From positions 6,982-70,981 of the forward strand of contig JAKSVT010000004.1 in the NCBI GenBank assembly GCA_024407875.1: a stretch of DNA of 64,000 bases. Direction: 5' to 3'. This document shows, piece by piece, positions 27,155 to 57,348 of this stretch (its first letter is position 1; each line of letters begins with the position of its first letter). The DNA is from Alphaproteobacteria bacterium (GTDB lineage Bacteria > Pseudomonadota > Alphaproteobacteria > CAAGCB01 > CAG-977). The position numbers were made by a program, and so were the translations under genes. The notes beneath the pieces were generated by a model. That model had not been told where the DNA came from and made no database searches. It was given only the letters and a program-made list of their open reading frames with translations.

Positions 27155-28627
27155 TTAGTCTCTTCCAAACAAATCTCTAGTATAAACCTTTTTCTTAACA
27201 TCATCTAATGAAGCATCGTACCTATTTGCTAAAATAGCTTGAGATTTTTTCTTAAACTCATTTAAATCATTAACCACTTTACTGCCAAAGAAAGTTGTTC
27301 CATTAGGTAATGTTGGTTCATAAATAATAACCGTTGCCCCTTTAGCTTTAATACGCTTCATTACACCTTGAATACTGCTTTGACGGAAATTATCTGAATT
27401 ACTCTTCATTGTTAAACGATATACACCAATTACGCATTCTTTTTCATTTTCAGCACTATATTCGTTTTCATTTGCATAACTATAATATCCTGCAATATTT
27501 AAAACCTGATTTGCAATAAAGTCTTTTCTTGTTCTATTACTTTCAACAATAGCTTGAATTAAATTTTCAGGAACATCTTCAAAGTTAGCTAAAAGTTGTT
27601 TTGTATCTTTGGGCAAGCAATAACCACCATAACCAAAACTTGGATTATTATAGTGAGAACCAATTCTAGGATCTAAACAAACGCCTTTAATAATATCTTG
27701 AGTATTTAGTCCCTTCATTTCAGCATAAGTATCTAATTCGTTAAAATAAGATACTCTTAAAGCTAAATAAGTATTTGCAAACAACTTAACAGCTTCTGCC
27801 TCTGTAAAGCTCATAAACAATGTATCGATATTTTGTTTAACAGCACCTTGTTGTAGCAAACTTGCAAAAATATATGCTTTTTCTTTTGTTTTTTCATCGC
27901 AAGAAACAATAATTCTTGAAGGATATAAGTTATCATATAATGCTTTTGATTCACGCAAGAATTCAGGACTAAAAATGATATTTTCAGAATTATATTTCTT
28001 GCGTACGCTTTCTGTATACCCTACTGGAATAGTTGATTTAATAACCATTATAGCTTTAGGGTTTACTTTTAATACTAATTCAATAACAGCTTCAACTGCT
28101 GATGTATCAAAAAAGTTTTTTTGAGCATCATAATTTGTAGGAGCTGCAATAACTACAAAATCAGCATTTTTATAAGCAGCTTCCCCATCTAAAGTTGCTG
28201 TTAAATCTAGATCTTTTTCAGATAAGTATTTTTCAATATATTCGTCTTGAATTGGAGATTTTCTATTATTAATTAAATCAACTTTTTCAGGAACAATATC
28301 TACAGCCATTACGTGATTATGCTGAGCTAATAAAGTTGCAATAGAAAGACCTACATAACCAGTTCCTGCGACAGCTACATTATATTTTTTTAAATTAATC
28401 TCTTCTTTTTTATTTTCTTCTAAAAACAAATCTGTAATATCAAAGCCTAAAACTACTGATAGCTTTTCTAATTGTTCAATTGTTGGAACATAATCCTTTT
28501 TTTCAATTCTACTAATCATAGTTCTATGAATTCCAGTATCTTTAGATAACTGTTCCATAGTAATTTTCTTTGATTTTCTTAATTCATTTACTGTCTGAGA
28601 TAATTTTGAAACTGATAATTTTTTCAT
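27155..28627 (-). CDS. ugd: UDP-glucose 6-dehydrogenase with N-terminal XRE-type HTH extension
   Basis: Residues ~85–490 align with Ugd ('[16 protein letters not shown]', catalytic 'GGYCLPKD'). Residues ~15–75 form an HTH_3-like motif ('[22 protein letters not shown]'). The ORF is continuous from the ATG at 28627. Confidence 0.7.
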
Positions 28628-42954: not shown

Positions 42955-43029
42955 TGGAGCGTAGCCAAGTGGTAAGGCAAAGGACTTTGACTCCTTCATG
43001 CGCTGGTTCGAATCCAGCCGCTCCAGCCA
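42955..43029 (+). tRNA. tRNA-Gln (anticodon UUG)
   Basis: Acceptor TGGAGCG/CGCTCCA with the U1–A72 pair typical of Gln, anticodon stem AAGGA/TCCTT with loop CTTTGAC, T-arm GCTGGTTCGAATCCAGC, and an encoded CCA. Confidence 0.8.
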
Positions 43030-43038
43030 GAGTCACAA

Positions 43039-43062
43039 AGTCGTCAGAAATGGCGACTTTTT
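43039..43062 (+). terminator. Rho-independent terminator after tRNA-Gln
   Basis: AGTCGTC-agaaatg-GCGACT stem-loop followed by TTTTT. Confidence 0.65.
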
Positions 43063-43342
43063 CTTTTATTTTCAAGCATTTAATCCGGTTCGAAGATGAA
43101 TATATTTTGAAGGCTAGTTTTGCTGTATCTTCGAACTTGCTTCTATATTTTTCAATAACTTAGCTAATTGCAGCCTTTTTTAAGCATAAAAATGAACCTC
43201 TGCTAATTTTTGCAAAGGTTGAACTTCTGACATAGCTATATGAAAGGTTGTTTAGCAATATTGTTAATAAAAACATTTGCATTATTTACTATGTCAAAAT
43301 ATGTCGTAACCTAAATGTATGTTTTATATAGGATGAATATTA

Positions 43343-44253
43343 TGGCATATGAAAAGACTTTTAATTTGTTAGATTTGGCGATTTGGATGCAATCAACTCG
43401 CGAAGGAGTTAGTTTGTCAGATATTATGAGTCGCTTTCAAGTATCAAGAAGAACTGCCGAACGTATGCGAGATATGATATTAAGTCGATTTCCTCAAGTT
43501 GTTGAAGAAATCGGTGAAAATAATTCAAAACGTTGGTATATCCCGCAAGGCACATTAAAAGACTTTATTCAATTTTCGGCTGATGATATTGCTTGTCTTA
43601 ATTTAGCCAAAGATGCCTTAATTAAAGAAAAACTATCTGATAAAGCCGACCAATTAAATGCTATTATTGAAAAAATTACAGCTTCCATTAAGCCAAATAC
43701 TTTATTAAAAATAGAACCTGATGCAGAAGTTTTGTTAGAAGCTCAAGGTTTTGCTCGCCGTGTCGGTCCAAAAATTAAAATTGATACTCAATATTTGGAA
43801 ACAATTAAAGAGGCTATTTTATCTAGCAAAGAACTAAAAATTAAGCATAATAACAAAACTCAAATTGTAGCTCCTTATGGTTTCTTATATGGTAATAAGC
43901 CTTATTTGGTAGCTTATTCCAATAATGCAAAAGAGTTCAGATATTATGCTTTACACAAGTTAAATTCCGTTCAGCTGACAAATAATCATTTTATTAATAC
44001 TTTTTCATTAAACGAATTTACCAAAGATTGTTTTGGCGTTTATAAAGAAAAACCTTTTGAAGTTGAATGGTTATTTAATGCTGATGTAGCTAAAGATGTT
44101 GAAAAATATGAATTTCATCCATCTCAACAAATGATAAAAAATAAAGACGGTACTTTAACCGTAAAGTTTTTCGCAGGTGGTCAAAAAGAAATGGATTGGC
44201 ATCTTTATACCTGGGGTGATAAAGTTAAAGTAATAAAACCAGAAAGGAAATAA
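43343..44253 (+). CDS. HTH–WYL–WCX transcriptional regulator (YafY/BrxR/CapW family)
   Basis: N-terminal winged HTH ('SLSDIMSRFQVSRRTAERMRDMI'), central WYL-like domain ('APYGFLYGNKPYLVAY...RYYALHKL'), and C-terminal WCX with the 'HPSQ' hallmark. Start placed at ATG 43343 with an AGGA RBS. Confidence 0.7.
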
Positions 44254-44255
44254 AA

Positions 44256-44819
44256 ATGACGCAAGAAGAAAATAAATTAAAGTACATTGAGAAAGATACT
44301 AAAATTGTAATTTTAGGAACATTTCCCTCTGAAGCATCAAGAGATACTTTCTTTTATCACAAATCAACCAATCAGTTTTGGACCATATTAAGTAAGCTTT
44401 ATAATTGTAATGATATTTGTCATTTACAAAAGAATGAAACATCTAAAGACAAAGAAGAACAATTAATTGAAAACAGAAAAGCTTTTCTTAAAAAGCACCA
44501 AATTGGTTTATGGGATGTTATTGATAAATGTGACATAGATAAAAGCAAAGATTCCTCTATCAAAAATCCGACTTATAATGATTTAGCTTCATTAAAAACA
44601 GAATGTCCAAAGTTAGAGCACATTTATTTTAGCAGTAAAAAAGCTTTTCAATTTTATCAAAAATATTTGCGAGACAATTTAAAAGATTATGCAAGTAAAA
44701 TTTGGTTAGAAAATGTTGTTATTAAAGAAGCATTACCATCTCCAAGTTCTGCTAATGCTCGTTTGACATTAGAACAAAAGCAAAAAAGATGGGGAGAGTT
44801 GTTAGGCTTATTTAATTAA
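44256..44819 (+). CDS. UDG-superfamily DNA glycosylase-like protein (Mug/TDG-like)
   Basis: Motif A 'ILGTFPSEAS...FFYHKSTNQFW' (compare Mug 'GINPG...FAHPANRFW'). Motif B 'LPSPSSANARL' (compare 'LPNPSGLSR'). Lies 2 nt downstream of the WYL regulator. Confidence 0.5.
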   Translation: MTQEENKLKYIEKDTKIVILGTFPSEASRDTFFYHKSTNQFWTILSKLYNCNDICHLQKNETSKDKEEQLIENRKAFLKKHQIGLWDVIDKCDIDKSKDSSIKNPTYNDLASLKTECPKLEHIYFSSKKAFQFYQKYLRDNLKDYASKIWLENVVIKEALPSPSSANARLTLEQKQKRWGELLGLFN

Positions 44820-44913
44820 AAGCAATCTTCTTCTAAATCGCTAAATTTTCCTATATCTCGGTCAAATAAGCATTTTATCCATCCGCAATTGCCATTATTG
44901 TTTTTAGCGATTA

Positions 44914-45795
44914 TTATTTCACATTTATTTTCTTGTTCTGTTCTAGGCAATCTTCTTGCCATTCTTTATAACGTTTTTCAAAATGCTCTTTTGTTTCTCT
45001 TTTATACTGCTTTGGTTCTTTATCATACATATAATAACTTTCTCTATATAAAAATAAGAGTTTATCAGCATATGGAACGATATTACGATACCCGTCTTTA
45101 ATATCACTATTAATTGGTATTTTACATTGTCTTTGCTCTAGGTTTCGGTTTAGTTGAGAAAGTATAAGTATTGGAACATCTAATTTTTCTGCAATACTTT
45201 TAATATCTTGCATAAATTTTTTATAAGCTTGATTTGACTTATCTTCTGAATAAAGTGATAAAAGTTGCAAACAATCTATAACGACAAGCCCGAATTTATT
45301 TCTATTTGCAAATGCATATATCTTATCTTTTATATCACTAATAGAGCTTATTTGATTGCATAGATATATTGGCAATTGATTTATTTCATTACCGGTAAGT
45401 GCTATTTTTTCAAATTGTTTATAGTTTTCTATGTTGTGTCTTAATTCATATAAAGGAATTCCGGAAGCTAAACTAACAAACCGTTGCATTATATTCTTAT
45501 TATTGCATTCAAAATCAAAATATAAAACGTGTTTTATTTCTGAATTGTTTTGTTCTGCTTCTTCTTTGAATTTTTGTGCCACCTGATAAACACAGTTTAT
45601 TGCAAATGCCGTTTTTCCCATTGCAGGTCGTCCCGCTATAAGAACAACATCACCACCTCGAATATATCCTAGTCTTTCATCTAATCTATCTATACCTGTT
45701 GACAATCCGAGAGGCTCACTGTTCATTTGATAACGATATTCAACTTCTTTAATATATTCAAGAAATGCATCAGATATATGTAATGTTTTATCCAT
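44914..45795 (-). CDS. DnaB-family replicative helicase, C-terminal (RecA-like) domain only
   Basis: 'GLSTGIDRLDERLGYIRGGDVVLIAGRPAMGKTAF' (Walker A), 'VIDCLQLL' and 'ILSQLNRNLEQR...NSDIKDGYRNIVPYADKLLFLYRE'. The N-terminal DnaB domain is absent. Confidence 0.65.
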   Translation of the reverse strand: MDKTLHISDAFLEYIKEVEYRYQMNSEPLGLSTGIDRLDERLGYIRGGDVVLIAGRPAMGKTAFAINCVYQVAQKFKEEAEQNNSEIKHVLYFDFECNNKNIMQRFVSLASGIPLYELRHNIENYKQFEKIALTGNEINQLPIYLCNQISSISDIKDKIYAFANRNKFGLVVIDCLQLLSLYSEDKSNQAYKKFMQDIKSIAEKLDVPILILSQLNRNLEQRQCKIPINSDIKDGYRNIVPYADKLLFLYRESYYMYDKEPKQYKRETKEHFEKRYKEWQEDCLEQNKKINVK

Positions 45796-46032
45796 TTTAA
45801 TACTCCATACTAGTTTTTGTTGTATGGATATTAAACTAAAGATACGCCATATTTTGACAGATACAAATATACCAATATTGCAGATAGGTGAAATTAGTTA
45901 AAGAACAGGTTTTATTAGCAAACTAACATATTGTCATTAATAGTGGTAGGTTATAATTTACTTTTCTTAATGAAACATATATCAAAATCTAAATAGCTTA
46001 TATGGGGCGAAAGTACAATTTTCTATTTTACT

Positions 46033-46878
46033 TTATTTATCGCTAGTATTCTGATTAAGTATCGATTCAAAGAATCTATCAAATTCAAAAATTTCTTCTG
46101 CTTTCACAATTACACCAATATTGATAGGGAAACTGGTTACTGGCCTTGGAATACACGGGATGTAATCAAATTTTAAAATTCCTTCAGCATTGTATTCAAG
46201 CCCCCCATACAAAACTCCAACAAATTTAATATTATTACCTAAATATGCACCACTTTTATCAGTATACAATCCTTCGTTTAAAACAAACACAGGAGAACCA
46301 CTGCATCCGTGAAAACTTGCAATATCAATTAAAAATTCTTTTTTCCCATTGTAATTATTTTTAATATGCGTAGCAGTAATACCTTTACGAATAATTGGTT
46401 TGTGATTATATACATCTGAAAATCCTATCGGATATCCAACCATAACAATATTTTCAATAGCTGTCATGTTTTCTATTTCTTCTTGCGAAGGAATTAAACT
46501 CATATCCAATGGAATGTAAAAGGTGTGAATACCTTGTTTTATCACATTATCAAGTGCATCTGTTATTGGTAAGCAACATAAATCTACCGATAAACTTGGA
46601 TGTTCTATCCAAGGACACCCATCATATGTAAATGGAGCTGTTTTTGTATTACAGATATTTCCATCTGCATCGCATGTACATAACTCAAATTGTGTCATTA
46701 CACTATTCTTTACTACGTGTTTATTTGTAATAACGGCGGCTATATATTTACTATTATCTTTACTATTAAAATGGACAATAAAACCCGTACCTAAACTAAC
46801 TTTATGATTTTTATCAGTGCATTTAAGCAGCACAGTAGAATAAGTAATTTTTTCTGATAAACTCATTTGTTCAATCAT
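46033..46878 (-). CDS. Trypsin-like (S1/chymotrypsin-fold) serine protease, no signal peptide
   Basis: 'GTGFIV...AVITNKHVV' (His), 'HGCSGSPVFV' (Ser nucleophile); 281 aa. Confidence 0.5.
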   Translation of the reverse strand: MIEQMSLSEKITYSTVLLKCTDKNHKVSLGTGFIVHFNSKDNSKYIAAVITNKHVVKNSVMTQFELCTCDADGNICNTKTAPFTYDGCPWIEHPSLSVDLCCLPITDALDNVIKQGIHTFYIPLDMSLIPSQEEIENMTAIENIVMVGYPIGFSDVYNHKPIIRKGITATHIKNNYNGKKEFLIDIASFHGCSGSPVFVLNEGLYTDKSGAYLGNNIKFVGVLYGGLEYNAEGILKFDYIPCIPRPVTSFPINIGVIVKAEEIFEFDRFFESILNQNTSDK

Positions 46879-47030
46879 TTTTTATCTTTCAGAAAGGCTA
46901 ATTACAACATTATATATTTAGGGTTTTATTTCTCAAAACGCAAGTATTTTATTGATTTGAAAATCTATCTCGGGTTCCTAACACCCCGAAGTTAAAAACA
47001 ATTAAAATTTTAGCTCGAGAATTGCGAATT

Positions 47031-47080
47031 CACTCCAGCCAGACTTAACAGGTCGTCTTTAAAGACGGCCTTTTGCTTTA
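47031..47080 (+). repeat. Second copy of the tRNA-Gln 3'-end repeat plus hairpin (internal att-like junction)
   Basis: 'CACTCCAGCCAGA', then AGGTCGTCTTT-aa-AGACGGCCT hairpin and TTTTG. Confidence 0.55.
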
Positions 47081-47306
47081 TTTACAAGGCTTTCGGCTGG
47101 TCCGTGTGGTTAGCATCAAAAAACAGCCTTCCCGACAATTTACACGGACCAGTTATAGCAAGTTTCTTTATTTTTCAATCATTTATGAAATTTCATCTCT
47201 CTAAATATGCAATAACGCGATTTCGGGAGAAGATGGACTTCATTTACTTGAGGGAAAGATGTTGTTAATTTATTTAATTGATATTATTTTTAAAATATCC
47301 GTCAAT

Positions 47307-48605
47307 TTAGTTTTTTCCATAATTATCAAGTTTGATTTTGTTACGTATATTTTCATTATCAATATTTTCTACATATTTAATTACATTATCTGGTGCACCA
47401 TAATCACTTGCCATTTTACCTTTTTCAGTGTAAGCATTATATTCAAATTTTGATAATAATCTATCAAATCCCGTTACATCATCAATTTCGCATTTTAAAG
47501 TCTGAGATATCCTATATTTATAGATTAGATTGAATATCCCTAAATATTTTACAAGGTGATATTTAAGTTTATTATAGATAAAATCGGCTGTCGTTCTTAT
47601 AGCTCTATCATAATCCAGATTTTTCTTCTCTATATAATATTTAACTTCGCCATAAAATCCTGCTTTAAGATAACAACTTACCATATAAACAAGAACAGAG
47701 AACTCTTTACCTTCGTAAGTGGAAGTCTTATTATTGATTAATGAGTATATCGGCGAATCTTTTGCAATATCTTTTATTGTGTTCAGAAATATTTGGAAGC
47801 CATCAAAATTTATAGAATCGTACATAGTAGAATTTACACAATTTTCAATTTTAGCTAATTCCTCAGATGTTAATCCCATAATTTTATGAAATAGCGAAAC
47901 CTTATTTTGCTTTGAGATTGTCTTAAATTGAGTAAGTATGATACCAGGAAGTAAAGACGACAATCTATTTATTTCTTTTTTTCTTTCTAAATCTTGTTCC
48001 GATAAGTAATTATCTCTTGTATAATCTAGATCTATATCAGTTTTTGCAGACGTTTTATCATAATTTTTATGCTCTAAAATGGCGTCGTTTGCATATAACA
48101 CATCCATAAAATTATTTTGCAGAACAATAACTCTTCCTGAATAATGATGAAGAAATCTACCAGCACGACCCGCAATATTTTTTGCATCAAATGGTTTTAA
48201 TGGTTTAGGAGACTTTTTACATAGCGTTACAAGAATATTTTTTGCAGAGGTGTTTACTCCTTCCGTTATGGTTGTAGTTGTTGTTAAAACTTGTAATTCT
48301 CCTTGATTAAAAAATTTAATAATTTCTTTTTGAATATATTTTGGAACCAAGCCATTGTGTATACCCACACCTTTTTTCAGGGCTTTATATAATAACCAAT
48401 CTTCTGAAAATGTACTCTTTATATGTTCTAAAAATAATGCGTATTGACTATCATAATCGTGAAGCTCTGGTAAAATATCTAATAAATATTTGGCATAAGA
48501 CCTTGTTCCTTTTTTATCAGCACAATAGACAATACATTTTTCCCCATTATTAAGTAAGGTTTTTATAATTGATATAAATTTATCTGTTTTATTATTCTTA
48601 CACAT
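47307..48605 (-). pseudogene. SF2 helicase C-terminal fragment (RecA2 domain plus C-terminal extension); N-terminal ATPase domain missing
   Basis: Motifs IV–VI 'LTTTTTITEGVNTSAKNILV' and 'AGRAGR', but no Walker A/DEAD anywhere upstream. Only 75 bp separate it from the divergent neighbour. Confidence 0.5.
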
Positions 48606-48680
48606 TTTTTAACTGTAAGATTACCACAACATTGGGAAACTACTAATTTAAATCATGCAATAGGAAGATTAAGACTTATT

Positions 48681-49055
48681 ATGAAGGTATTTGAAAGATG
48701 TCTTATTAAAAATCATTGGAACAAACATCATTTACCTTTTATTGCTACTTCTGAAACAGGTGATGGTATATATTGGCATTTTCATATATTGTTTAATCAA
48801 GATAAATATACAGATGATATGTTAAATAATGCTATAAAGAAGACTATTAAATCTATAAGAGGTATGTCTGATTACTGCTTAAAATTAAAACATATTGAAG
48901 AAGATAATATAAAAACATTTGTAAAAGCTGTTAATGATACTGATTTTTATTGTTTAAAGGAGATAAAAGTTAATAGATATGGTAAATTTGACGGTGAAAG
49001 GATAATATTTTCTGATGATTTATTCAACTTGCCATATCAAAGCATATCCCATTGA
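48681..49055 (+). CDS. Hypothetical protein (124 aa) with an HUH-like 'WHFHILF' motif
   Basis: ORF only; 'HLPFIAT' followed by 'HFH' resembles HUH-endonuclease motifs, but this is speculative. Confidence 0.3.
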   Translation: MKVFERCLIKNHWNKHHLPFIATSETGDGIYWHFHILFNQDKYTDDMLNNAIKKTIKSIRGMSDYCLKLKHIEEDNIKTFVKAVNDTDFYCLKEIKVNRYGKFDGERIIFSDDLFNLPYQSISH

Positions 49056-49057
49056 GT

Positions 49058-49150
49058 CATAAACAACCCATAAACAGCCGGATTCATTTTTTATAACTAA
49101 ACCTATACCAAAAAGTAGAATTGAATCATATGGTCAAAAATAGACTTTAT
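49058..49150 (+). repeat. Direct repeat copy 1 (~93 bp), upstream of fic
   Basis: About 75% identical to 50368–50460; shared blocks 'ATAAACAACC', 'ATTCATTTTTTATAA' and 'GGTCAAAAA-T-GACTTT'. Confidence 0.6.
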
Positions 49151-49262
49151 CTCAACTATATAAAAATTACCTTATAATCAAAAAATCGTTAGTTAATCAT
49201 ATTTTATTATTGATTTATTCATAATTTAATCATAAAATAATCATAAATTATAGGAGTAAATC

Positions 49263-50348
49263 ATGACTTTTTTACCAAAATATACCATTACCAAAGATAT
49301 TTTAGCTGATTTAACTAAGATTGAAGCTGTTAAAAATTCGTTTGATGATAAACCTTTGTCACCGGTTTTGTTATCTTCGCTGCATAAAACTGCCAAAATT
49401 GCACAAAGTCACTACTCTACGCAAATTGAAGGTAATCATTTATCATTAAAACAAGTAGAAACGACGCTTTATTCTGCCAACAAATCGATTAAAGAATATC
49501 AAGGTCATGACGAAAAAGAAGTCAAAGCTTATTACAATGCTATCAATTATATGGAAAAAGTTCTTGAAAATGGTGGAGAATTTGATGAAAAGCTGGTGCA
49601 AAAAATCCATTCACTAATTGAAGGCAGTAAAAAAATTATTCCATATCGTAATGAACAAAATGCAATATACGACACATCTGACGGCTCACTTGTCTATCTG
49701 CCACCGGAAACTAAAGATGTTCCTGTTATGATGAAAGATTTGGTTGCTTGGGTAAATGATAACATTGATAAATTGCCAACACCTATTGTAGCAGGTTTAT
49801 TTCATTATCAGTTTGTGACTATCCATCCTTATTTTGACGGTAATGGTAGAACAGCACGCTTGATGACAAGTTATATTATGCGTAAATTCGGTTATGGCTT
49901 AAAAGGTATTTATTCTTTGGAAGAGTATTATGCTAAAAATCTCAAAGATTATTATCAAGCACTGGCAACACATCCGCATCACAACTATTATTTTGGCCGG
50001 AACGTTGCTGATTTAACTCCTTGGCTTGAATATTTTATTAAAGGTGTGGCGACAGCATTTGAAAATATCAATATTAAAGCACAAGAACAGCAGAACACAG
50101 GTATTAAAACGGATATATCACCAATGTTGCGTAAACTGGATATTAAACAACGCAAAATTTTAGAATTATTTGTGGAGTTTGATCAAATAACCTCAAATCA
50201 AGCAGGTGAATATTTGAATTTATCATCACAATCAGCCAGACTTTTATTAAACAGATGGGTAGAAGAAGGATTTTTAATAATAGCAAATAAAGCGCGTAAA
50301 AACAGAACTTATGGTTTAGCACAAGAATATGAACAGCTGATATCATAA
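49263..50348 (+). CDS. Fic-family protein (AMPylase-type) with C-terminal winged HTH
   Basis: Canonical Fic motif 'HPYFDGNGRTARL'; 361 aa. Confidence 0.8.
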   Translation: MTFLPKYTITKDILADLTKIEAVKNSFDDKPLSPVLLSSLHKTAKIAQSHYSTQIEGNHLSLKQVETTLYSANKSIKEYQGHDEKEVKAYYNAINYMEKVLENGGEFDEKLVQKIHSLIEGSKKIIPYRNEQNAIYDTSDGSLVYLPPETKDVPVMMKDLVAWVNDNIDKLPTPIVAGLFHYQFVTIHPYFDGNGRTARLMTSYIMRKFGYGLKGIYSLEEYYAKNLKDYYQALATHPHHNYYFGRNVADLTPWLEYFIKGVATAFENINIKAQEQQNTGIKTDISPMLRKLDIKQRKILELFVEFDQITSNQAGEYLNLSSQSARLLLNRWVEEGFLIIANKARKNRTYGLAQEYEQLIS

Positions 50349-50367
50349 TAAAGCGCTCTCCATTGCT

Positions 50368-50460
50368 CTATAAACAACCTAGAAACAAGCTATTCATTTT
50401 TTATAAGTAAACTTATATCAAACAGGTAAAAGGTTGCTATAGGTCAAAAAATGGACTTTC
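50368..50460 (+). repeat. Direct repeat copy 2 (~93 bp), downstream of fic
   Basis: See copy 1. Confidence 0.6.
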
Positions 50461-50507
50461 TTACCAAATGGAAAAGAAGTTTATATTAAAGATACGGTAT
50501 CAAAAAA

Positions 50508-50580
50508 GGGCCCTATACAATCAAGATTCATTTCTACTGGTTAGTTTATAGTCAAAAATAAATCTATGCGTATAGGGCCC
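50508..50580. repeat. Inverted repeat, 11-bp perfect arms GGGCCCTATAC/GTATAGGGCCC with a 51-nt spacer
   Basis: Read directly. Lies immediately upstream of the recombinase remnant and is GC-rich in an AT-rich context. Confidence 0.6.
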
Positions 50581-50728
50581 CAAAACAAGCTTTAGTGTTT
50601 GTGTTTAGTTAATTAGTTGGCACCTTCCAATTTGATGTTGCAATCTGATAAAAACTCAGCAAATCTTCTTAAAGGAAAACCTGATTTTAAGCAAAGATTC
50701 TCGCGGTATTGATATTCTTTTCTGGAAT

Positions 50729-51757
50729 ATGTGCGTTTTAATGGCTAACAGTTATATTTTAAGCCTGTCTGACAATGTTCGCCGTAGTCTTGAATATAAC
50801 TGGAGCCAAGGCAAATGGCAGAGTTTGGCACCTATCGGATATCTCAATCAAAAAGATAAACATGGCAAATCCATTATAGTGATTGATGAAGAACGAGCAC
50901 CTATTATCAAGCGTTTGTTTGAAGAATATGCTACCGGTCTGCATACCGCACAAAGTTTATTGATTTTGGCTTGTAAATTAGGACTTACCGCTAAAGAAAC
51001 TTATTCAGAAGAGACACCTCAAAGAAAAAGATTTATCAGCCGTACCAAGATTTATGAAATTCTGCGTAATCCTTTTTATGCCGGAATTATGTGTGTCAAA
51101 GGAAAATTGATGCCACATATCCACGGCAAAATTATTGATAAAAAACTTTATGACCAAGTGCAGCAAATTATGGATGCTAAAGGTATGGAAAGAGAAATAC
51201 ATAAACATCAGCAAAAATACAAGGTTAAAAAGTTTGCATTTCGTGGAATTGTTTTGTGTGGCAGATGTCATCACTTAATGTCTCCGGATTGCAAAACCAA
51301 GACAAACGGCAAGCAATATACTTATTTAAGATGTTACAACAAATGCGGTCAAATGCCGATTAATGAAACCATATTGCTTAAACAGCTTGAAACAGAAGTA
51401 TTTGCTAAATTTTTCATACCACCGCAAGATTTTAATAAGATAAAACAATCTCTTATCAATCATTATAAACGACCATCACATGCAAAAACAGAGCTTTTGA
51501 ATAAACTGGTTAACCTGATTTGCAATATGCCAACCATTATGCAACAAGCAGATGCCGGCACCAAAAATGAAATATTGGTTATTCTGCTTCAAAATTTCAC
51601 CTTAAATGAGCAAACACTCTCTTATTCTCTTCGCTCGCCGTTTGATAAGCTGATTGAGACAGATTATCACAATTGGAAAGATATTATTATACATAATTTC
51701 AAAGACTTATCGTCGATTGGATATAATCTTAAAGCCATCAACTTAAAGGAGGATTAA
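50729..51757 (+). pseudogene. Large serine recombinase remnant lacking the N-terminal catalytic (resolvase) domain
   Basis: Paralog of 52169..53353, starting at the equivalent 'M.VLMA.NY..SLS.NV.RSL..NW..GKWQ' point. Has recombinase domain and Zn ribbon ('CGRCHHLM...LRCYNKCG'), but no 'ARVSS' catalytic domain upstream. Confidence 0.55.
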
Positions 51758-51760
51758 ACT

Positions 51761-52165
51761 ATGCGTAAAAAATACCAGAAGAAACTCATTGAAAAGTGTA
51801 CCGAAGCCATAACATTTGCGCGTGTTTCTAGCGAAAAACAGGAACGTGGCGCTTCTATTGATGCTCAAAAAGAATTGATCTACGATTATTGTATGGAGAA
51901 AAATTTCAAAATCATTAAAGAGTTTGAAATTACCGAGAGTACAACTCGCGGCGATCGTGTAAAATATAATGAAATGCTTGATTTTATTCGTTCTCGCAAC
52001 AAAAAGACCGCTATTGTTGTAAACTGCGTTGATAGACTTCAAAGAAGTGATGAAGATAATCCGGCACTTAATAAACTGCGCCGAGAAGGCAAAATTGAAA
52101 TACACTTTATGAAAGAGCATATTATCTTAGATGAAACTTCTCCGGTACAAGATATTTTTGCATAG
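51761..52165 (+). CDS. Serine recombinase N-terminal catalytic domain (ends at an in-frame TAG)
   Basis: 'ITFARVSSEKQ' (catalytic Ser) and 'VVNCVDRLQRS'. The ORF ends 'DIFA*' at TAG 52163–52165, in frame with the next ORF. Confidence 0.6.
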   Translation: MRKKYQKKLIEKCTEAITFARVSSEKQERGASIDAQKELIYDYCMEKNFKIIKEFEITESTTRGDRVKYNEMLDFIRSRNKKTAIVVNCVDRLQRSDEDNPALNKLRREGKIEIHFMKEHIILDETSPVQDIFA

Positions 52166-52168
52166 AAA

Positions 52169-53353
52169 ATGAATGTGCTAATGGCTGGCAACTACACGGA
52201 TTCATTATCATATAACGTAAAAAGAAGTTTGGTTAAAAACTGGAATTCTGGTAAATGGCAAGGCATGGCACCTCTCGGATATTTAAATCGCCATACAGAT
52301 GATGACAACAACGAAGCCATTATTATTGTTGATCCTGTTCGCGGACCGATTATCAAGCATTTATTTGAAGAATTTGCAACCGGTAAACATACTTTGAAAA
52401 CATTGTGGTATTTATCCAAAGAATTAGGTTTATATACCAAAAATAAAAAGAAAAAAGGCTGCTTTGTGAGCAGAAACACGCTTTATGATGTTCTGACCAA
52501 TCCGTTTTATCATGGTTTGATGTGTATCAAAGGCGAGTTTTACAATCATATTTATGAGCCGCTGATAAGCAAAGAATTATTTGACCGTGTACAAGCCATT
52601 TTGACCGGAAACGGCAATCATAATCGCAATAACACCACAGAATATGCCAAAACACCTTACATTTTCCGCGGTTTGATACATTGTAAAGAATGCGGTTGTT
52701 TGATTACGCCGGAAAAGAAAATCAAAAAGAACGGTAGCACGTATATTTATTTGCGTTGCGGTCATCCTTGTAAAGAATGTCATCAAGGAATAGTTAACGA
52801 AAATGTGATTATTGAGCAGCTGAAAAAGGAAGTTATGGATAAAATATCATTACCGCCGAAATTGCAGGAAATCGTCAAAGAAAAACTAACTCAAGAATTA
52901 AATGATACATCGGCTTTTAATAAGACTATGAAAACCAATATCACGAATAAACTGAACGAATTGAAAGTTAAAGAAGACAATTTACTTGATTTCTACCTGG
53001 AAGGAAAGCTGCCACAAGCAACTTATGAAGCCAAACAAGAACAGATTGCCAATCAGCGAGCTGAACTTGAGCAGACAGCCGAAAAATACAAAAATATTGA
53101 TGCCGATATGAAGAAAAGAGTTGTGCAGGTTATGGCTTTGGCAAATAATATCTCTAAGTTGTTTGATATGGCAACTCCAACCAGAAGAAACGAGTTATTA
53201 CAATTACTTATTTCAAACTGTCAACTTAATGATTCAAAATTAGAATATACCGTAAACGCACCATTTAACTGGTTAATGGATAGCAATAATTATACCGAAT
53301 GGACCACCGTCGTCATTGAGCATTTAGATGACTTTGAATGCGTGAAGGTGTAA
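52169..53353 (+). CDS. Large serine recombinase C-terminal portion (recombinase domain, Zn ribbon, coiled coil)
   Basis: Same frame as 51761..52165, separated by TAG+AAA. 'CKECGCLITP...LRCGHPCKEC' ribbon and a C-terminal coiled coil. Confidence 0.6.
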   Translation: MNVLMAGNYTDSLSYNVKRSLVKNWNSGKWQGMAPLGYLNRHTDDDNNEAIIIVDPVRGPIIKHLFEEFATGKHTLKTLWYLSKELGLYTKNKKKKGCFVSRNTLYDVLTNPFYHGLMCIKGEFYNHIYEPLISKELFDRVQAILTGNGNHNRNNTTEYAKTPYIFRGLIHCKECGCLITPEKKIKKNGSTYIYLRCGHPCKECHQGIVNENVIIEQLKKEVMDKISLPPKLQEIVKEKLTQELNDTSAFNKTMKTNITNKLNELKVKEDNLLDFYLEGKLPQATYEAKQEQIANQRAELEQTAEKYKNIDADMKKRVVQVMALANNISKLFDMATPTRRNELLQLLISNCQLNDSKLEYTVNAPFNWLMDSNNYTEWTTVVIEHLDDFECVKV

Positions 53354-53434
53354 GGATTATAATGGATGATATTTTAATAATATTGCAGATTTTATTTAAT
53401 TTATCATATACAATCACCGTAAATATCCAGGAGA

Positions 53435-55858
53435 TTGTACATGAAGATTATAAAAGAAATTACAAAATTGAAAAACTTTGCATCTTTTGAAGATTACGAA
53501 TGGGACTGCAAAGCATTAAATGATTTTGAAAAATATAATCTATTTTATGGGTTAAACGGTAGTGGAAAAACGACTTTATCTCGTTTATTCTATTTTCTTA
53601 ATGAAGGTATGATTTGTCATGAGGGGCACTATGATAGTGAATTTGGTATATTGCTTAATGACAACTCTTTAATTACACAATATGATAATAATGCATTAAA
53701 AGGAAAAATATGTGTTTTTAATGACTTATTTATTGAAAATTATTTAGATTTTAAGACCGTTAAATCAAAAAAAATTGTATATTTTTCTGCTGGAAAAGAT
53801 GCAAAAATGTTATTAGAATACAAAAAAGACTTAGAGAGAAGAAAACAAATTATAGCTAATAAACTCCAAAAAGTAAAAGATGAGTATTCACAACTTGATA
53901 TTAGTAATAAAAAAATTTATGGAGATTTTCAAGACAGCGTAGTAAATACTTTAGATATTAATAAAAATAAATTCAAAATTACTAACGCTATAAGCACATT
54001 AGATGTAATTCTTAAAAATCAATCTACTATATTCCTTTCAAATCAAGAAATTGATAACCAAAGAAATTTATATGCACAAACCCAACTCCCTATATTGGAT
54101 TATTCGTATTTGAAATCATATCCGTTAACTGTAGATGATATAGAAAAACTATCAGATTTATTAAAAGAAAAAATTGAAAGAAAAAATCTCTCCGATTTAC
54201 GGGATGAAATAGCTGATTGGCTAAATAATGGTATTACCTACCAAAATGAGCAATCTAACGGGAAATGTATTTTTTGCAATCAACCATTACATCCAACTAT
54301 CTGGCAAGAAAGAATCAAACAAATATTTCATATGACTGAAAAAGATGCCATATTTCAAATTAAAGAACAAACAATTAATCGGTATATTTCTGAAATACAA
54401 AATATACTCATGTCATCATTCAACATAAAAGAAAATATTAATCAATTTTACCCAAAATATAAAGTTGCATTCTCTAGTATTATAGGATCTTTACAATCTG
54501 AGTTCGACAACCTTAAAAATTTATTAGAAAAATTGATAAGTTATTTAACTGAAAAATTGAAAGATACTAAACGTAACATTGATATATCTGAGATTATGAT
54601 GGAAAATAATCTCAGTTTATATAATAATCTTGTTGTGTCTATTAATAATATAAATAGAACATTAGAAAAATTTGAAGATTTATTTACTAACAATAACCAA
54701 CATAGTCGAGTAATATCAAGTGAACAGACTGAGGCTTTTAATAATATATGTAGTTACTGTGCAACCTCTTTTGTCAAAGAATTATTAACTAACCATGATG
54801 CATTAAAAAGAAATGAAGCAGCCTCCAATAAATATATTAGTTTATTTAATAAAATAGAAACGAAATTAAAGCAGAAAGCACAAGAACTAGCAAATTCAGA
54901 AGCTCCTATTAACGAAATAAATGATATAATTCAACAAATAATGGGAAAAAATAAATTTTACTTTGATAAAGATGGTGTCGATGGGCAATATAGAATAAAA
55001 CGGATTGAACATAATAAAATAAATGAAGCCATAAATCTTAGCGAAGGTGAAAGAAATATTATATCTTTTGCTTTTTTTATCACATATATTAAGGAAAAGA
55101 TTGAAGATAGCATCATTGTAATTGATGATCCTATCTCTTCACTAGATAGTTCTTATTTTTTCAACATATTGAATCTTCTGTTAAGTTCTAGATTAATAAG
55201 AAATAATAAGTTAAAACAAATATTTATTTTAACCCATAATTTTTATTTTTTCAAAAAGCTAAGAAAAAATATTAAAGGACAGAAATGTCCACAATTAGAT
55301 GCAAATGGTAATATTATACGAGATTCAAATGGGAAAGAGTTAATTAAACTTTGTAAATATTCAAAAAAACAATCTCTCGAAAATAAGCAAATATACCAAA
55401 TTGTAAAAAGTAATTACGCATCATCAATTCAGCCACCATCTGACTACTTACGCAAATACAACAGCGAATATCTCACACTAATTGAACAATTCATAAAATA
55501 TAAAAATAATTTAGATATTACATCATATCAATATGATGAAGGTATTTCTGTTCTAAATACAATGAGAAGAATTTTAGAAACCTTTCTCGAAAACAAATAC
55601 CCTACATCAGGAGGAGAAGGCTTTAATGCAAAATTCCAAGAAACAATCACTAAATTACACAGAGATGACTTATTATATTTAGCAGACATTCTTAATATCG
55701 GTAGTCATGGTGATAACCCTTTCCCCTCTCTTAACTATACTAAATATGAAGATTTCTCAAAGTTGACTGATGATTATCTTGATTATATTAAGAGCCTAGA
55801 TATTGATTTCTATAGCAGTGTATTTGAGCCATTATTATCTATACATATGAAACCATAG
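53435..55858 (+). CDS. PrrC/RloC-like ABC ATPase (AAA_13) with CxxC zinc-hook; candidate anticodon nuclease / abortive-infection protein
   Basis: Walker A 'GLNGSGKTT' and a long coiled coil carrying 'CIFCNQ'. ABC signature 'LSEGER' and Walker B/D-loop 'IIVIDDPISSLDS'. The ~240-aa C-terminal domain ('RRILE...GSHG') is unassigned. Confidence 0.5.
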   Translation: MYMKIIKEITKLKNFASFEDYEWDCKALNDFEKYNLFYGLNGSGKTTLSRLFYFLNEGMICHEGHYDSEFGILLNDNSLITQYDNNALKGKICVFNDLFIENYLDFKTVKSKKIVYFSAGKDAKMLLEYKKDLERRKQIIANKLQKVKDEYSQLDISNKKIYGDFQDSVVNTLDINKNKFKITNAISTLDVILKNQSTIFLSNQEIDNQRNLYAQTQLPILDYSYLKSYPLTVDDIEKLSDLLKEKIERKNLSDLRDEIADWLNNGITYQNEQSNGKCIFCNQPLHPTIWQERIKQIFHMTEKDAIFQIKEQTINRYISEIQNILMSSFNIKENINQFYPKYKVAFSSIIGSLQSEFDNLKNLLEKLISYLTEKLKDTKRNIDISEIMMENNLSLYNNLVVSINNINRTLEKFEDLFTNNNQHSRVISSEQTEAFNNICSYCATSFVKELLTNHDALKRNEAASNKYISLFNKIETKLKQKAQELANSEAPINEINDIIQQIMGKNKFYFDKDGVDGQYRIKRIEHNKINEAINLSEGERNIISFAFFITYIKEKIEDSIIVIDDPISSLDSSYFFNILNLLLSSRLIRNNKLKQIFILTHNFYFFKKLRKNIKGQKCPQLDANGNIIRDSNGKELIKLCKYSKKQSLENKQIYQIVKSNYASSIQPPSDYLRKYNSEYLTLIEQFIKYKNNLDITSYQYDEGISVLNTMRRILETFLENKYPTSGGEGFNAKFQETITKLHRDDLLYLADILNIGSHGDNPFPSLNYTKYEDFSKLTDDYLDYIKSLDIDFYSSVFEPLLSIHMKP

Positions 55859-55896
55859 AAATTTTATTCTTCTATCATAGTCCGTGTATTGCAAGC

Positions 55897-55942
55897 TCAC
55901 TCCAGCCAAATTTTAAAGTCGTCAGAAATGGCAACTTTTTTT
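55897..55942 (+). repeat. Third copy of the tRNA-Gln 3'-end repeat plus (degenerate) hairpin; right boundary of island
   Basis: 'CACTCCAGCCAAA', then AAGTCGTCAGAAATGGCAACT (one G-to-A change relative to the tRNA-proximal hairpin) and T7. Confidence 0.55.
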
Positions 55943-55975
55943 ATAATCAATATTGATATTTTGAAAGTTTAAAAT

Positions 55976-56422
55976 ATGTTAAATCAAGATTTAAAAATGG
56001 AAAAATTTACAGAAAACGATAGACAAGAATTAATGAATATGATGATAGAATTCTTTTCTTCAGAAGCTGTATCTACAAATGGAAATCCTGAAATTTTTAA
56101 ATCTACTATAGATAATTGTATATATAACCCTACATATGTAGAAGGATATATTTTAAAATTCAAAAATGAAAATGCAGGTTATATTATAATTGCCAAAAGT
56201 TTTACTACAGAATTTGGGAAAAATTGCCTTTGGCTTGAAGATTTATATTTAAAAAATCAATTTAGAGGGAAAGGCATCATTCCTTATTGCTTAGATCTTA
56301 TAAAAACAAAATATCCTGATTATATCTTTAAATTAGAAGTTGAAGCAGAAAATGAACATGCAATACACGTATATAAGAAATTCGGATTTAAAGAATTTCC
56401 TTATTTTGTAATGCATACTTAA
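55976..56422 (+). CDS. GNAT-family N-acetyltransferase
   Basis: 'RGKGI' and 'HVYKKFGFKE' motifs; 148 aa. Confidence 0.6.
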   Translation: MLNQDLKMEKFTENDRQELMNMMIEFFSSEAVSTNGNPEIFKSTIDNCIYNPTYVEGYILKFKNENAGYIIIAKSFTTEFGKNCLWLEDLYLKNQFRGKGIIPYCLDLIKTKYPDYIFKLEVEAENEHAIHVYKKFGFKEFPYFVMHT

Positions 56423-56443: not shown

Positions 56444-56638
56444 TTATATCTGATGAGAATATTCTGATTCGTTTGTTTCCACAAATTCATCATCATGATC
56501 AAGCATAATTTCAGCTAATACGTCATTATTAATCTTGTCTTCGCCATTTATTTTTTCATAACATACACGAGGACCTAGTTCTGTGTATTCTACTTTATAC
56601 ACCTTACTGTTAATTCTATAATACTTATAATCGCTCAT
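56444..56638 (-). CDS. Small acidic protein (64 aa), translationally coupled downstream of the RelA/SpoT-domain gene; putative antitoxin
   Basis: TAATG overlap at 56636–56640; D/E-rich sequence. Confidence 0.35.
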   Translation of the reverse strand: MSDYKYYRINSKVYKVEYTELGPRVCYEKINGEDKINNDVLAEIMLDHDDEFVETNESEYSHQI

Positions 56639-57348
56639 TATCTTGCCCTTTTACTCAAAAGCAACGCTTTCTTTGTTGCATTATTTAATAGCTTTGGCTC
56701 TTCTTTTGTTTCTTGTTTTGTTTCTTCAGGAACATTCTTTAATTTTCTACCTTTTGTTGTAGCATTATATGTTCTTGCAGCTTCAGCGTATAAATATTTT
56801 TGTGCTTGAGAATGAATATTTAATGCAATCTGTTCACTAGGCGTCAAAGCTCTATCTTTTGCTCCAGCCATAATGGAACGAATTTTTTCATAATGTAAAT
56901 GAGCTTTTTCATTTGCTTCTAAATAAGCACGTAAATGAATTTGAATTTCAACAGGAGCTCCACTAGATACAGCAACTACATATTTAACATCTCTGTATCC
57001 ATCTTTATTTGGTTCATCCATACGATCTACTTTTCTAACTGTATCAGCTCTTTTATCTAATATACCTGTAACAGCATCAATTTGTTCCAAAGTATCACAT
57101 ACAATACGACCTCTAGCTAAATCCTGTAATCTTGAAGGATCTCCATCATATTTATGATTTAATTTTTCAAAAGCTCTTGCACGTCCCTTTAAAGGAGCTG
57201 CTGTATATGTAACCCCAGGAACCTCTTTAATTACATTTTCACAAAAAGCATCCAATTCAGGCTTTGATTTTTCAGCATAAGCATAAGCTTCATCTAAAGT
57301 TTTTGGTTTGTATTCAGGTCTCATTTTTTGTCTCCGATACATATTCAA
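56638..57348 (-). CDS. Stand-alone RelA/SpoT-domain (small alarmone synthetase-like) protein; candidate toxSAS
   Basis: 'GRARAFEK..', 'GRIVCDT', 'DGYRDVKYVV' and 'EIQIHL' (compare EIQIRT); 236 aa with a basic C-terminal tail. Confidence 0.55.
   Translation of the reverse strand: MNMYRRQKMRPEYKPKTLDEAYAYAEKSKPELDAFCENVIKEVPGVTYTAAPLKGRARAFEKLNHKYDGDPSRLQDLARGRIVCDTLEQIDAVTGILDKRADTVRKVDRMDEPNKDGYRDVKYVVAVSSGAPVEIQIHLRAYLEANEKAHLHYEKIRSIMAGAKDRALTPSEQIALNIHSQAQKYLYAEAARTYNATTKGRKLKNVPEETKQETKEEPKLLNNATKKALLLSKRAR

Follow-up and report, generated by a model that had tools for sequence, protein, structure and literature searches.

A stand-alone Tas1/Apk1-like alarmone synthetase and its overlapping 64-residue partner: a candidate toxSAS toxin-inhibitor module in an uncultured alphaproteobacterium

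Toxic small alarmone synthetase (toxSAS) toxin-antitoxin modules, the Tas1-Tis1 pair and the FaRel-AT2faRel system are already known. Tas1 (Apk1) of Pseudomonas aeruginosa is a (p)ppApp synthetase of the type VI secretion system (T6SS; PDB 6OX6). It is fused to a PAAR delivery domain and encoded in a T6SS cluster (PMC7229694), with the small immunity-type gene Tis1 directly downstream. FaRel of Cellulomonas marina is a cytoplasmic stand-alone toxin-antitoxin synthetase that makes ppApp and ppGpp and is neutralised at the acceptor site by a Tis1-like domain (PMC7229694, PMC11782079). The tRNA-CCA-pyrophosphorylating systems FaRel2-ATfaRel2, PhRel2 and CapRel are likewise bicistronic, often with overlapping genes, and consist of a toxSAS and a small antitoxin. 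Structured lock-and-key inhibitors have been described as the norm for toxSAS (PMC11782079). Here we analyzed a stretch of 64,000 nucleotides from an Alphaproteobacteria bacterium (assembly GCA_024407875.1, contig JAKSVT010000004.1, positions 6,982 to 70,981), referred to as the window. On its minus strand, a stand-alone Tas1/Apk1-like small alarmone synthetase (SAS; 56638-57324) is followed by an overlapping open reading frame (ORF; 56444-56638) for a 64-residue protein, the partner, which is a candidate antitoxin or immunity protein. We favor the reading, with a probability of about 0.58, that the two genes form a self-contained toxin-inhibitor module of the toxSAS kind. The pair belongs to an uncharacterised stand-alone branch with its own partner family. 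A first-pass annotation of the window had proposed a toxSAS toxin-antitoxin candidate at this locus, and our results support that proposal in part.

Both ORFs are real, as the first-pass annotation had them, but the synthetase is probably shorter than the 236 residues it gave. The mechanically called ORF (56638-57348, minus strand) is read from a TTG. The N termini of homologues agree on a later start: 10 of 10 begin 6 to 7 residues ahead of a conserved P-x-x-[LI]-DEAY motif, which fits the ATG at 57324-57322. A Shine-Dalgarno sequence, GGAG (57332-57335, minus strand), lies 7 nt upstream of this ATG, within the 3'-terminal part of the CNNM/CBS (TlyC-like) gene that precedes the SAS. Because the homologue N termini and the GGAG concur, we take ATG 57324 as the likely start, giving a product of probably 228 residues. 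The stop codon of the CNNM/CBS gene (57316-57314) places the overlap with the SAS start at 11 nt.

The synthetase matches Pfam RelA_SpoT (PF04607) at E 9.2e-10, with 39.2 bits against a cutoff of 27. Its SYNTH core spans approximately residues 1-195 and is followed by a variable basic tail (residues 196-228) with a net charge of +4, in agreement with the earlier description of a (p)ppGpp-synthetase-type domain with a basic tail. The isoelectric point (pI) of the last 30 residues is 9.7-12 in all SAS orthologues, and that of the whole window protein is 9.3. At the other end, the N terminus is hydrophilic (MRPEYKPK), with 6 residues preceding the core. We found neither a delivery-domain fusion (PAAR/Rhs, WXG/LXG, MuF or DUF4157) nor a signal peptide in the window SAS, which is without an N-terminal extension or hydrophobic leader. 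An AlphaFold2 model built from the 11-sequence family alignment has a confident SYNTH fold, with a predicted local distance difference test score (pLDDT) of 88.7 and confidence falling past approximately residue 200, in the tail. Foldseek with this model returned 74 PDB matches at E <= 1e-3; all 50 of the 50 listed were RelA/SpoT homologue (RSH) synthetases and Tas1 was the top match, although Foldseek separates SYNTH proteins poorly.

As a separate observation on the core, a C-terminal motif, [YF]-N-x-x-[TAC]-x-G-x-[KR]-L, comes after the last long helix, at residues 187-195 (56743-56766, minus strand), where the window SAS has N187, G192, K194 and L195. Its N, G and L recur throughout the family and also in the six more distant stand-alone proteins that were inspected (P0012, P0015, P0018, P0021, P0036 and P0037), and most fused-toxin matches to the SAS stop short of the motif.

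Sequence comparison gave a clearer placement within the SYNTH proteins. As a single sequence against the PDB, the window SAS found Tas1 (6ox6_A) best, at E 2.7e-14. The family profile returned Tas1 at 1.2e-18, RelP at 1.5e-6, Rel at ~3e-5 and RelQ at ~1e-4, while CapRel was not matched at E <= 10 and no chain labelled FaRel2 appeared either. RelQ/SasB and RelP/SasA have the same SYNTH fold and catalytic motifs as the window SAS (Foldseek E 1e-9 to 1e-7), but in profile E-value they are ~12 orders of magnitude weaker than Tas1. Judged by sequence, the SAS is much nearer to Tas1/Apk1 than to the housekeeping enzymes RelP, RelQ and Rel, and its identity to Tas1 is ~23-30 % over the core. No NCBIfam family scored above its cutoff, the equivalog NF053588 (YjbM) reaching 20.5 bits against a cutoff of 320. 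Clustering with housekeeping RelQ- or RelV-type enzymes had been named in the first-pass annotation as evidence against a toxin. For RelQ and RelP no such grouping was seen, Tas1 being the nearest characterized relative. The RelV part of the comparison is not clean, because Tas1 itself has been described as a divergent homologue of the RelV subfamily (PMC7229694) and enzymes of the RelV type are toxic if they stay in the cytoplasm (PMC12691689).

Exported alarmone synthetases (EAS), such as SaEAS and the RelV-type VpEAS, have been placed with Tas1/Apk1 in one Apk1-homologue family, and these enzymes too are toxic if kept in the cytoplasm (PMC12691689). Among the top Foldseek matches, the lowest root mean square deviation from the SAS model is that of SaEAS (8vx3), at 3.6 Å. 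EAS enzymes come with a Sec signal peptide or a delivery domain, and no immunity gene accompanies those that depend on Sec, whereas the window SAS has neither export feature and is of a family that is always partnered.

All catalytic residues of the SYNTH domain that we checked are intact. K46, R48, R50, K54, D68, R71, R73, Y110, E126 and Q128 show no variation among the 11 family sequences. They lie in the motifs PLK46-G-R48-A-R50...K54, D68-LAR71-G-R73, G-Y110-R and V-E126-I-Q128, which align with Tas1 and RelP. The codons for K46, R48, R50 and K54 (57163-57189, minus strand) fall in PLKGRARAFEKL, aligned to PIKSRERAMQKI of Tas1; from general knowledge of RSH enzymes, we take these to be the basic residues of the ATP-phosphate-binding helix. 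D68 (57121-57123, minus strand; motif QDLARGR) is the conserved SYNTH active-site aspartate, aligns with DLAR in Tas1 and DIAGIR in RelP, and is presumably equivalent to RelSeq D264. E126 (56947-56949, minus strand; motif VEIQIH) is the conserved catalytic glutamate of the ExQ motif, aligned with GEIQVN in Tas1 and VEIQIRT in RelP. Y110 (56995-56997, minus strand; motif GYRD), aligned with GY in Tas1 and GYRS in RelP, is likely the G-loop tyrosine that stacks on the acceptor base. Since these motif residues are invariant and align with both Tas1 and RelP, the window SAS is predicted to be an active pyrophosphokinase. In SaEAS, D121A is described as a change that inactivates the active site (PMC12691689). 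The G-loop residue of FaRel2 is Y128, and FaRel-Y175F and FaRel2-Y128F are compromised variants (PMC11782079); a FaRel Y175A variant has also been described (PMC7229694). We regard Y110 as the probable equivalent of FaRel2 Y128 and FaRel Y175.

Among 1.84 billion cluster representatives, 4,281 relatives of the SAS were found at E <= 1e-3 and 27 at E <= 1e-30, and the nearest ones are all annotated "hypothetical protein" or unnamed. We surveyed domain architecture in 160 sequences, comprising the best 150 of the 4,281 relatives and the family members. Stand-alone proteins of <= 270 residues made up 37 of the 160, and ~75 % were fused to other domains: the SYNTH domain was at the C terminus after an extension of >= 80 residues in 73, extensions were C-terminal or two-sided in 46, and 4 remained uncategorised. 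In a quick neighbor-joining tree, the window family (11 clusters) was monophyletic, with P0012 and P0015, both stand-alone, as successive sisters. Of eight long relatives that were scanned, three carried eCIS_core/DUF4157, one Phage_Mu_F (MuF) and one WXG100. Domains of the eCIS, MuF and WXG100 types are among the export-associated domains reported for Apk1 homologues (PMC12691689).

Such delivery domains in related sequences, together with the closeness to Tas1, fit an effector-immunity pair, in which the enzyme would be exported to neighbor cells by a secretion system encoded elsewhere, for example by way of its disordered basic tail or an adaptor, and the partner would be the immunity protein, as for Tas1-Tis1. 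The variable, positively charged C-terminal tail, present in every orthologue and modeled with low confidence, also fits this explanation. Substrates of type IV secretion are known to carry positively charged signals at the C terminus. However, the window SAS is a bare toxin domain with a basic tail, and has neither an N-terminal delivery domain nor a signal peptide. No secretion-system genes were present in the 64-kb window or beside the pair in the contexts examined, and the partner family was seen beside stand-alone SASs only, never beside fused toxins. We consider export of the enzyme very unlikely.

A tblastn search of plasmids and phages gave four weak matches in three distinct records, none of which covered >= 80 % of the query. 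In Bordetella phage vB_BbrM_PHB04 (L029; MF663786.1, 33169-39507), the portal gene is followed by a gene for a 493-residue protein with a C-terminal SYNTH domain, 39 % identical to the window SAS over 111 residues. After it come an overlapping 69-residue ORF, an RSH-hydrolase-like gene for 192 residues whose annotation reads (p)ppGpp synthetase/hydrolase, and a gene for a Ser/Thr phosphatase. The cassette is annotated merely as hypothetical and resembles an Apk2-like phage toxin cassette. We considered its 69-residue ORF as a bridge from the partner to other immunity proteins and dropped it, as no similarity was found.

The stop of the SAS (TAA, 56640-56638) and the start of the partner (ATG, 56638-56636) have one base in common, 56638. 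The TAATG overlap (56636-56640, minus strand), noted in the first pass, was read directly as AGA-TAA-TG and is consistent with translational coupling. A homologous ORF of 59-70 residues overlaps the SAS stop in 29 of 29 loci, 12 species-level genomes included, by 1, 4 or 8 nt. Conservation of the small ORF in homologous loci, which the first-pass annotation had asked about, is therefore complete in these loci. Searches that started from the partner gave 35-39 clusters of 59-74 residues, apart from one fragment, and every homologue whose context was read lies directly 3' of a stand-alone SAS. A widened partner profile added further stand-alone pairs only and placed no partner beside fused toxins. 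In the outgroups P0012 and P0015, the downstream ORFs are homologous to the partner as well (hhalign 99.0 % and 96.3 %, at 22-24 % identity). Both genes are under purifying selection, with median ratios of nonsynonymous to synonymous substitution rates (dN/dS) of 0.17 (SAS) and 0.21 (partner). Pairwise protein distances of the two correlate with r = 0.85. Taken together, the partner is a real gene and an obligate companion of the SAS, and the pairing is strict and ancient.

The partner had been described as a small D/E-rich ORF. It is acidic, with a pI of 4.5 and a net charge of -9 over residues 38-64, and the acidic part is the C-terminal half. It is predicted to be more than an acidic peptide, however. 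The AlphaFold2 model is compact (pLDDT 87.5), with a four-strand β-meander, a helix, a short strand and a helix (β-β-β-β-α-β-α), which points to a folded, β-rich protein. The alignment of 33 partner sequences has 5 invariant and 11 nearly invariant columns. No match was found in Pfam, NCBIfam or PADLOC, and the best PHROGs match was at E 0.04; without a Pfam or NCBIfam match, the partner has no recognised DNA-binding domain. ATfaRel2, at 73 residues, is similar in being small, folded and not described as DNA-binding.

We compared the partner with solved antitoxins by sequence and by fold. Sequence profiles reached no solved antitoxin and found no similarity to Tis1. The sole sequence match to a solved structure was an internal segment of a YpdA/Bdr reductase (E 0.12, then 0.031), which we judged spurious because it is a fragment of an unrelated 328-residue enzyme. 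Foldseek with the partner model gave nothing below E 0.9, and a Tis1-like fold was not confirmed. ATfaRel2 and the pseudo-Zn-finger domain (pZFD) are built as β1-β2-α1-β3-β4-α2 with a C-terminal YXXY motif for neutralisation (PMC11782079). The topology predicted for the partner differs from this, and CapRel, whose chain includes a pZFD, was absent among the listed structural matches of the partner model. A C-terminal YXXY is not conserved in the partner family either, in which the sole aromatic cluster is an N-terminal [YF]-[KR]-Y-[YF].

Among characterized systems, Tas1-Tis1 gives the best sequence and structure match to the SAS and has the same arrangement, with the small immunity-type gene directly downstream. 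The window pair is similarly ordered with the toxin gene first. A common mechanism, nucleotide pyrophosphorylation blocked by a folded protein, is likely by analogy. The closest analogue in concept, likened here by its published description, is FaRel-AT2faRel (PMC7229694, PMC11782079), which also works from a stand-alone enzyme in the cytoplasm. FaRel belongs to a three-gene operon with an extra alarmone-hydrolase antitoxin, and AT2faRel has a second, pZFD-like domain, whereas the window pair has two genes, a single-domain partner of 64 residues and no adjacent hydrolase.

The scheme that we propose for the toxSAS-type module is as follows; enzyme activity, product, toxicity, direct binding, the blocked site and the trigger are steps that we infer. 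The free 228-residue enzyme would use ATP to pyrophosphorylate a purine nucleotide at its 3'-OH. Most likely it would make (p)ppApp, although (p)ppGpp may accompany or replace this product. At the high rates reported for characterized members of the lineage, ATP or GTP pools would be drained and the producing cell arrested. The partner, presumably made from the same mRNA by coupled translation, would bind the enzyme 1:1 and block a substrate site. This would be the acceptor site, as for Tis1 on Tas1, if the rule proposed for nucleotide-producing toxSAS (PMC11782079) applies. Some trigger, whether phage infection, stress or loss of the partner, would then release the enzyme.

The first-pass annotation had offered two mechanisms, nucleotide pyrophosphorylation and tRNA modification. 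Homology, on which this choice is based, favors the former, and a purine nucleotide is the more likely substrate. A tRNA-targeting toxSAS would have the same toxin-antitoxin architecture with another target. The window protein is basic (pI 9.3) and its tail could bind RNA, and Foldseek does match the SAS model to CapRel at E ~1e-6. However, no sequence relationship with FaRel2 or CapRel was detectable, CapRel staying out of reach of a profile that finds Tas1 at 1e-18. The (pp)pApp synthetase FaRel also binds tRNA 37-fold more weakly than FaRel2 (PMC11782079). We therefore give a tRNA target little probability.

We next consider where the pair resides. All carriers are uncultured gut or rumen Alphaproteobacteria. 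We identified at least six genomic contexts, in which the two genes of the pair are the sole constant. In the window, the pair follows the CNNM gene. Elsewhere it precedes a gene for an 838-residue protein (L001 type), lies between a UDP-glucose dehydrogenase (UGDH) gene and DUF5662, lies between YjbQ and DUF2207, follows DsbD, or precedes Pth. The order UGDH, SAS, small ORF, DUF5662 is a fixed slot in 11 species-level loci. In this clade, SAS identity tracks UGDH identity with r = 0.94, and the mean identity of the SAS, 0.72, falls between the 0.85 and 0.59 of the flanking genes. The pair is inherited vertically in this clade. Gaps to the upstream gene on the same strand are 18-85 nt there, and in the window the genes overlap. 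A scan for a dedicated promoter or terminator of the pair gave fewer promoter-like sites than shuffled sequence, none of them well placed. As the overlap leaves no space between the genes and no convincing promoter match lies upstream, the pair is probably co-transcribed with the CNNM/CBS gene or expressed from a promoter within it.

These contexts bear on a different explanation, that the pair is neither a selfish toxin-antitoxin module nor a defence system but a domesticated physiological regulator. A (p)ppApp or (p)ppGpp synthetase and a regulatory subunit would then form a vertically inherited alarmone switch that benefits the host by tuning metabolism, with a native activity that is non-lethal. 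The fixed slot in the UGDH clade, the co-divergence with UGDH, the short upstream gaps or overlap and the purifying selection on both genes are what such a regulator would lead one to expect. Against this stand the lethal toxicity of the nearest characterized relative and the fusions seen in most of the lineage, toxin-delivery domains included. An obligatory, overlapping and co-diverging small partner is a signature of neutralisation; to our knowledge, housekeeping RelP and RelQ have no obligatory partner gene. The pair also occurs in at least five other unrelated contexts and therefore also moves as a unit. We regard a regulator of this kind as unlikely, if worth keeping in view.

Several points nevertheless weigh against a toxin-inhibitor module. 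A fixed housekeeping slot with co-divergence, as in the 11 loci, is untypical of mobile selfish toxin-antitoxin modules. In a classical type II toxin-antitoxin operon, the promoter is usually autoregulated and the antitoxin binds DNA; in the window, the SAS start overlaps the CNNM/CBS gene and no promoter of its own is evident. The PADLOC match of the SAS, to PDC-S33, is weak (2.8e-7). Toxicity, neutralisation and product are what we infer for the pair, not experimental results. Finally, Apk1-family products are (p)ppApp, (p)ppGpp or both (PMC12691689), and homology thus does not fix the product of the SAS.

A few features of individual contexts were recorded in passing. In the closest relatives of the pair (60 % identity; L001:6900-9416, L002, L003 and L013), an ORF of 838-842 residues begins 18 nt after the small ORF. 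It has no Pfam match, is absent from the window and could be a third component in its sub-clade. In L004-L028, the DUF5662 gene is convergent on the small ORF and overlaps its 3' end, by 4 nt in most of these loci and by up to 27 nt in others. L004 and L005 then have a Fic gene, and in the L004-L028 clade a NUDIX hydrolase is encoded two to three genes farther along. The order UGDH, SAS, small ORF, DUF5662 also occurs on a 77-kb contig titled Limosilactobacillus gorillae (L021; CAVCSV010000006.1), with a SAS 56 % identical to that of the window. This contig is probably mis-binned or mislabelled, the locus being alphaproteobacterial.

The surroundings of the pair in the window had been taken in the first pass as a typical toxin-antitoxin or defence neighborhood, next to an island boundary and a GNAT gene. 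The position is correct, but the pair is not within the island. A tRNA-Gln gene lies at 42955-43029, and the sequence at its 3' end and just downstream (43020-43069) recurs at 55898-55947. These direct repeats bound an island of ~12.9 kb (43020-55947), an integrated element at tRNA-Gln. We rejected the pair as island cargo, since the right repeat ends to the left of the GNAT gene, which puts that gene and the pair outside the island. The GNAT gene (55976-56422) adjoins the pair convergently and resembles PaiA/RimI-type acetyltransferases, far under cutoff. It was considered as a third component or a GNAT-type toxin of a toxin-antitoxin system and rejected, being convergent and missing from every homologous locus. 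With the pair outside the island, the GNAT gene not conserved beside it and 11 loci among housekeeping genes, the neighborhood argument falls.

The island itself carries a WYL-WCX regulator, a UDG-family protein, a DnaB_C-like ATPase, a trypsin-like protein, a Helicase_C protein, Fic, two serine-recombinase genes and an AAA_13 ATPase, the last of which matches the PADLOC candidate defence family PDC-S06 at E 3e-84. The large serine recombinase (51761-53353, plus strand) has a Resolvase N domain, a Recombinase domain and a Zn-ribbon. It is interrupted by a single in-frame TAG (52163-52165), with an ATG one codon on; the gene may be a pseudogene, the TAG may be recoded, or the stop may reflect an error in sequencing. 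The neighboring recombinase ORF (50729-51757) is without the catalytic Resolvase domain. A 34-nt repeat has three copies in the island (45956-45989, 49082-49115 and 50392-50425); two copies, 88 % identical to each other, flank the Fic gene (49263-50348) in a cassette-like arrangement. Elsewhere in the window, a UDP-glucose/GDP-mannose dehydrogenase (27155-28627, minus strand) is unusual in being an enzyme fused to a DNA-binding domain, with an HTH_3 domain of the Cro/C1 type at its N terminus (E 4e-12).

If confirmed, the module would extend the repertoire by a compact stand-alone Tas1-like toxSAS and a new sequence family of antitoxins or immunity proteins, in a lineage of uncultured gut and rumen Alphaproteobacteria of which essentially nothing has been characterized. 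The pair connects polymorphic SYNTH toxins that are secreted with two-gene modules of the cytoplasm, their lineage occurring here without a delivery domain. The 64-residue protein would be a small inhibitor with which the proposed acceptor-site rule of nucleotide-producing toxSAS could be probed. Vertical inheritance among housekeeping genes in most carriers, across species-level divergence, also invites the question whether toxins of the (p)ppApp type can become domesticated regulators. In a bolder and quite improbable version, a clade of these bacteria would have domesticated a Tas1-type toxin domain with its inhibitor as a vertically inherited core-genome switch that makes (p)ppApp or a related alarmone as a signal, physiological or anti-phage, with the partner as a new small-protein fold class that senses the trigger. 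If true, this would be a natural use of (p)ppApp for self-regulation and not as a weapon.

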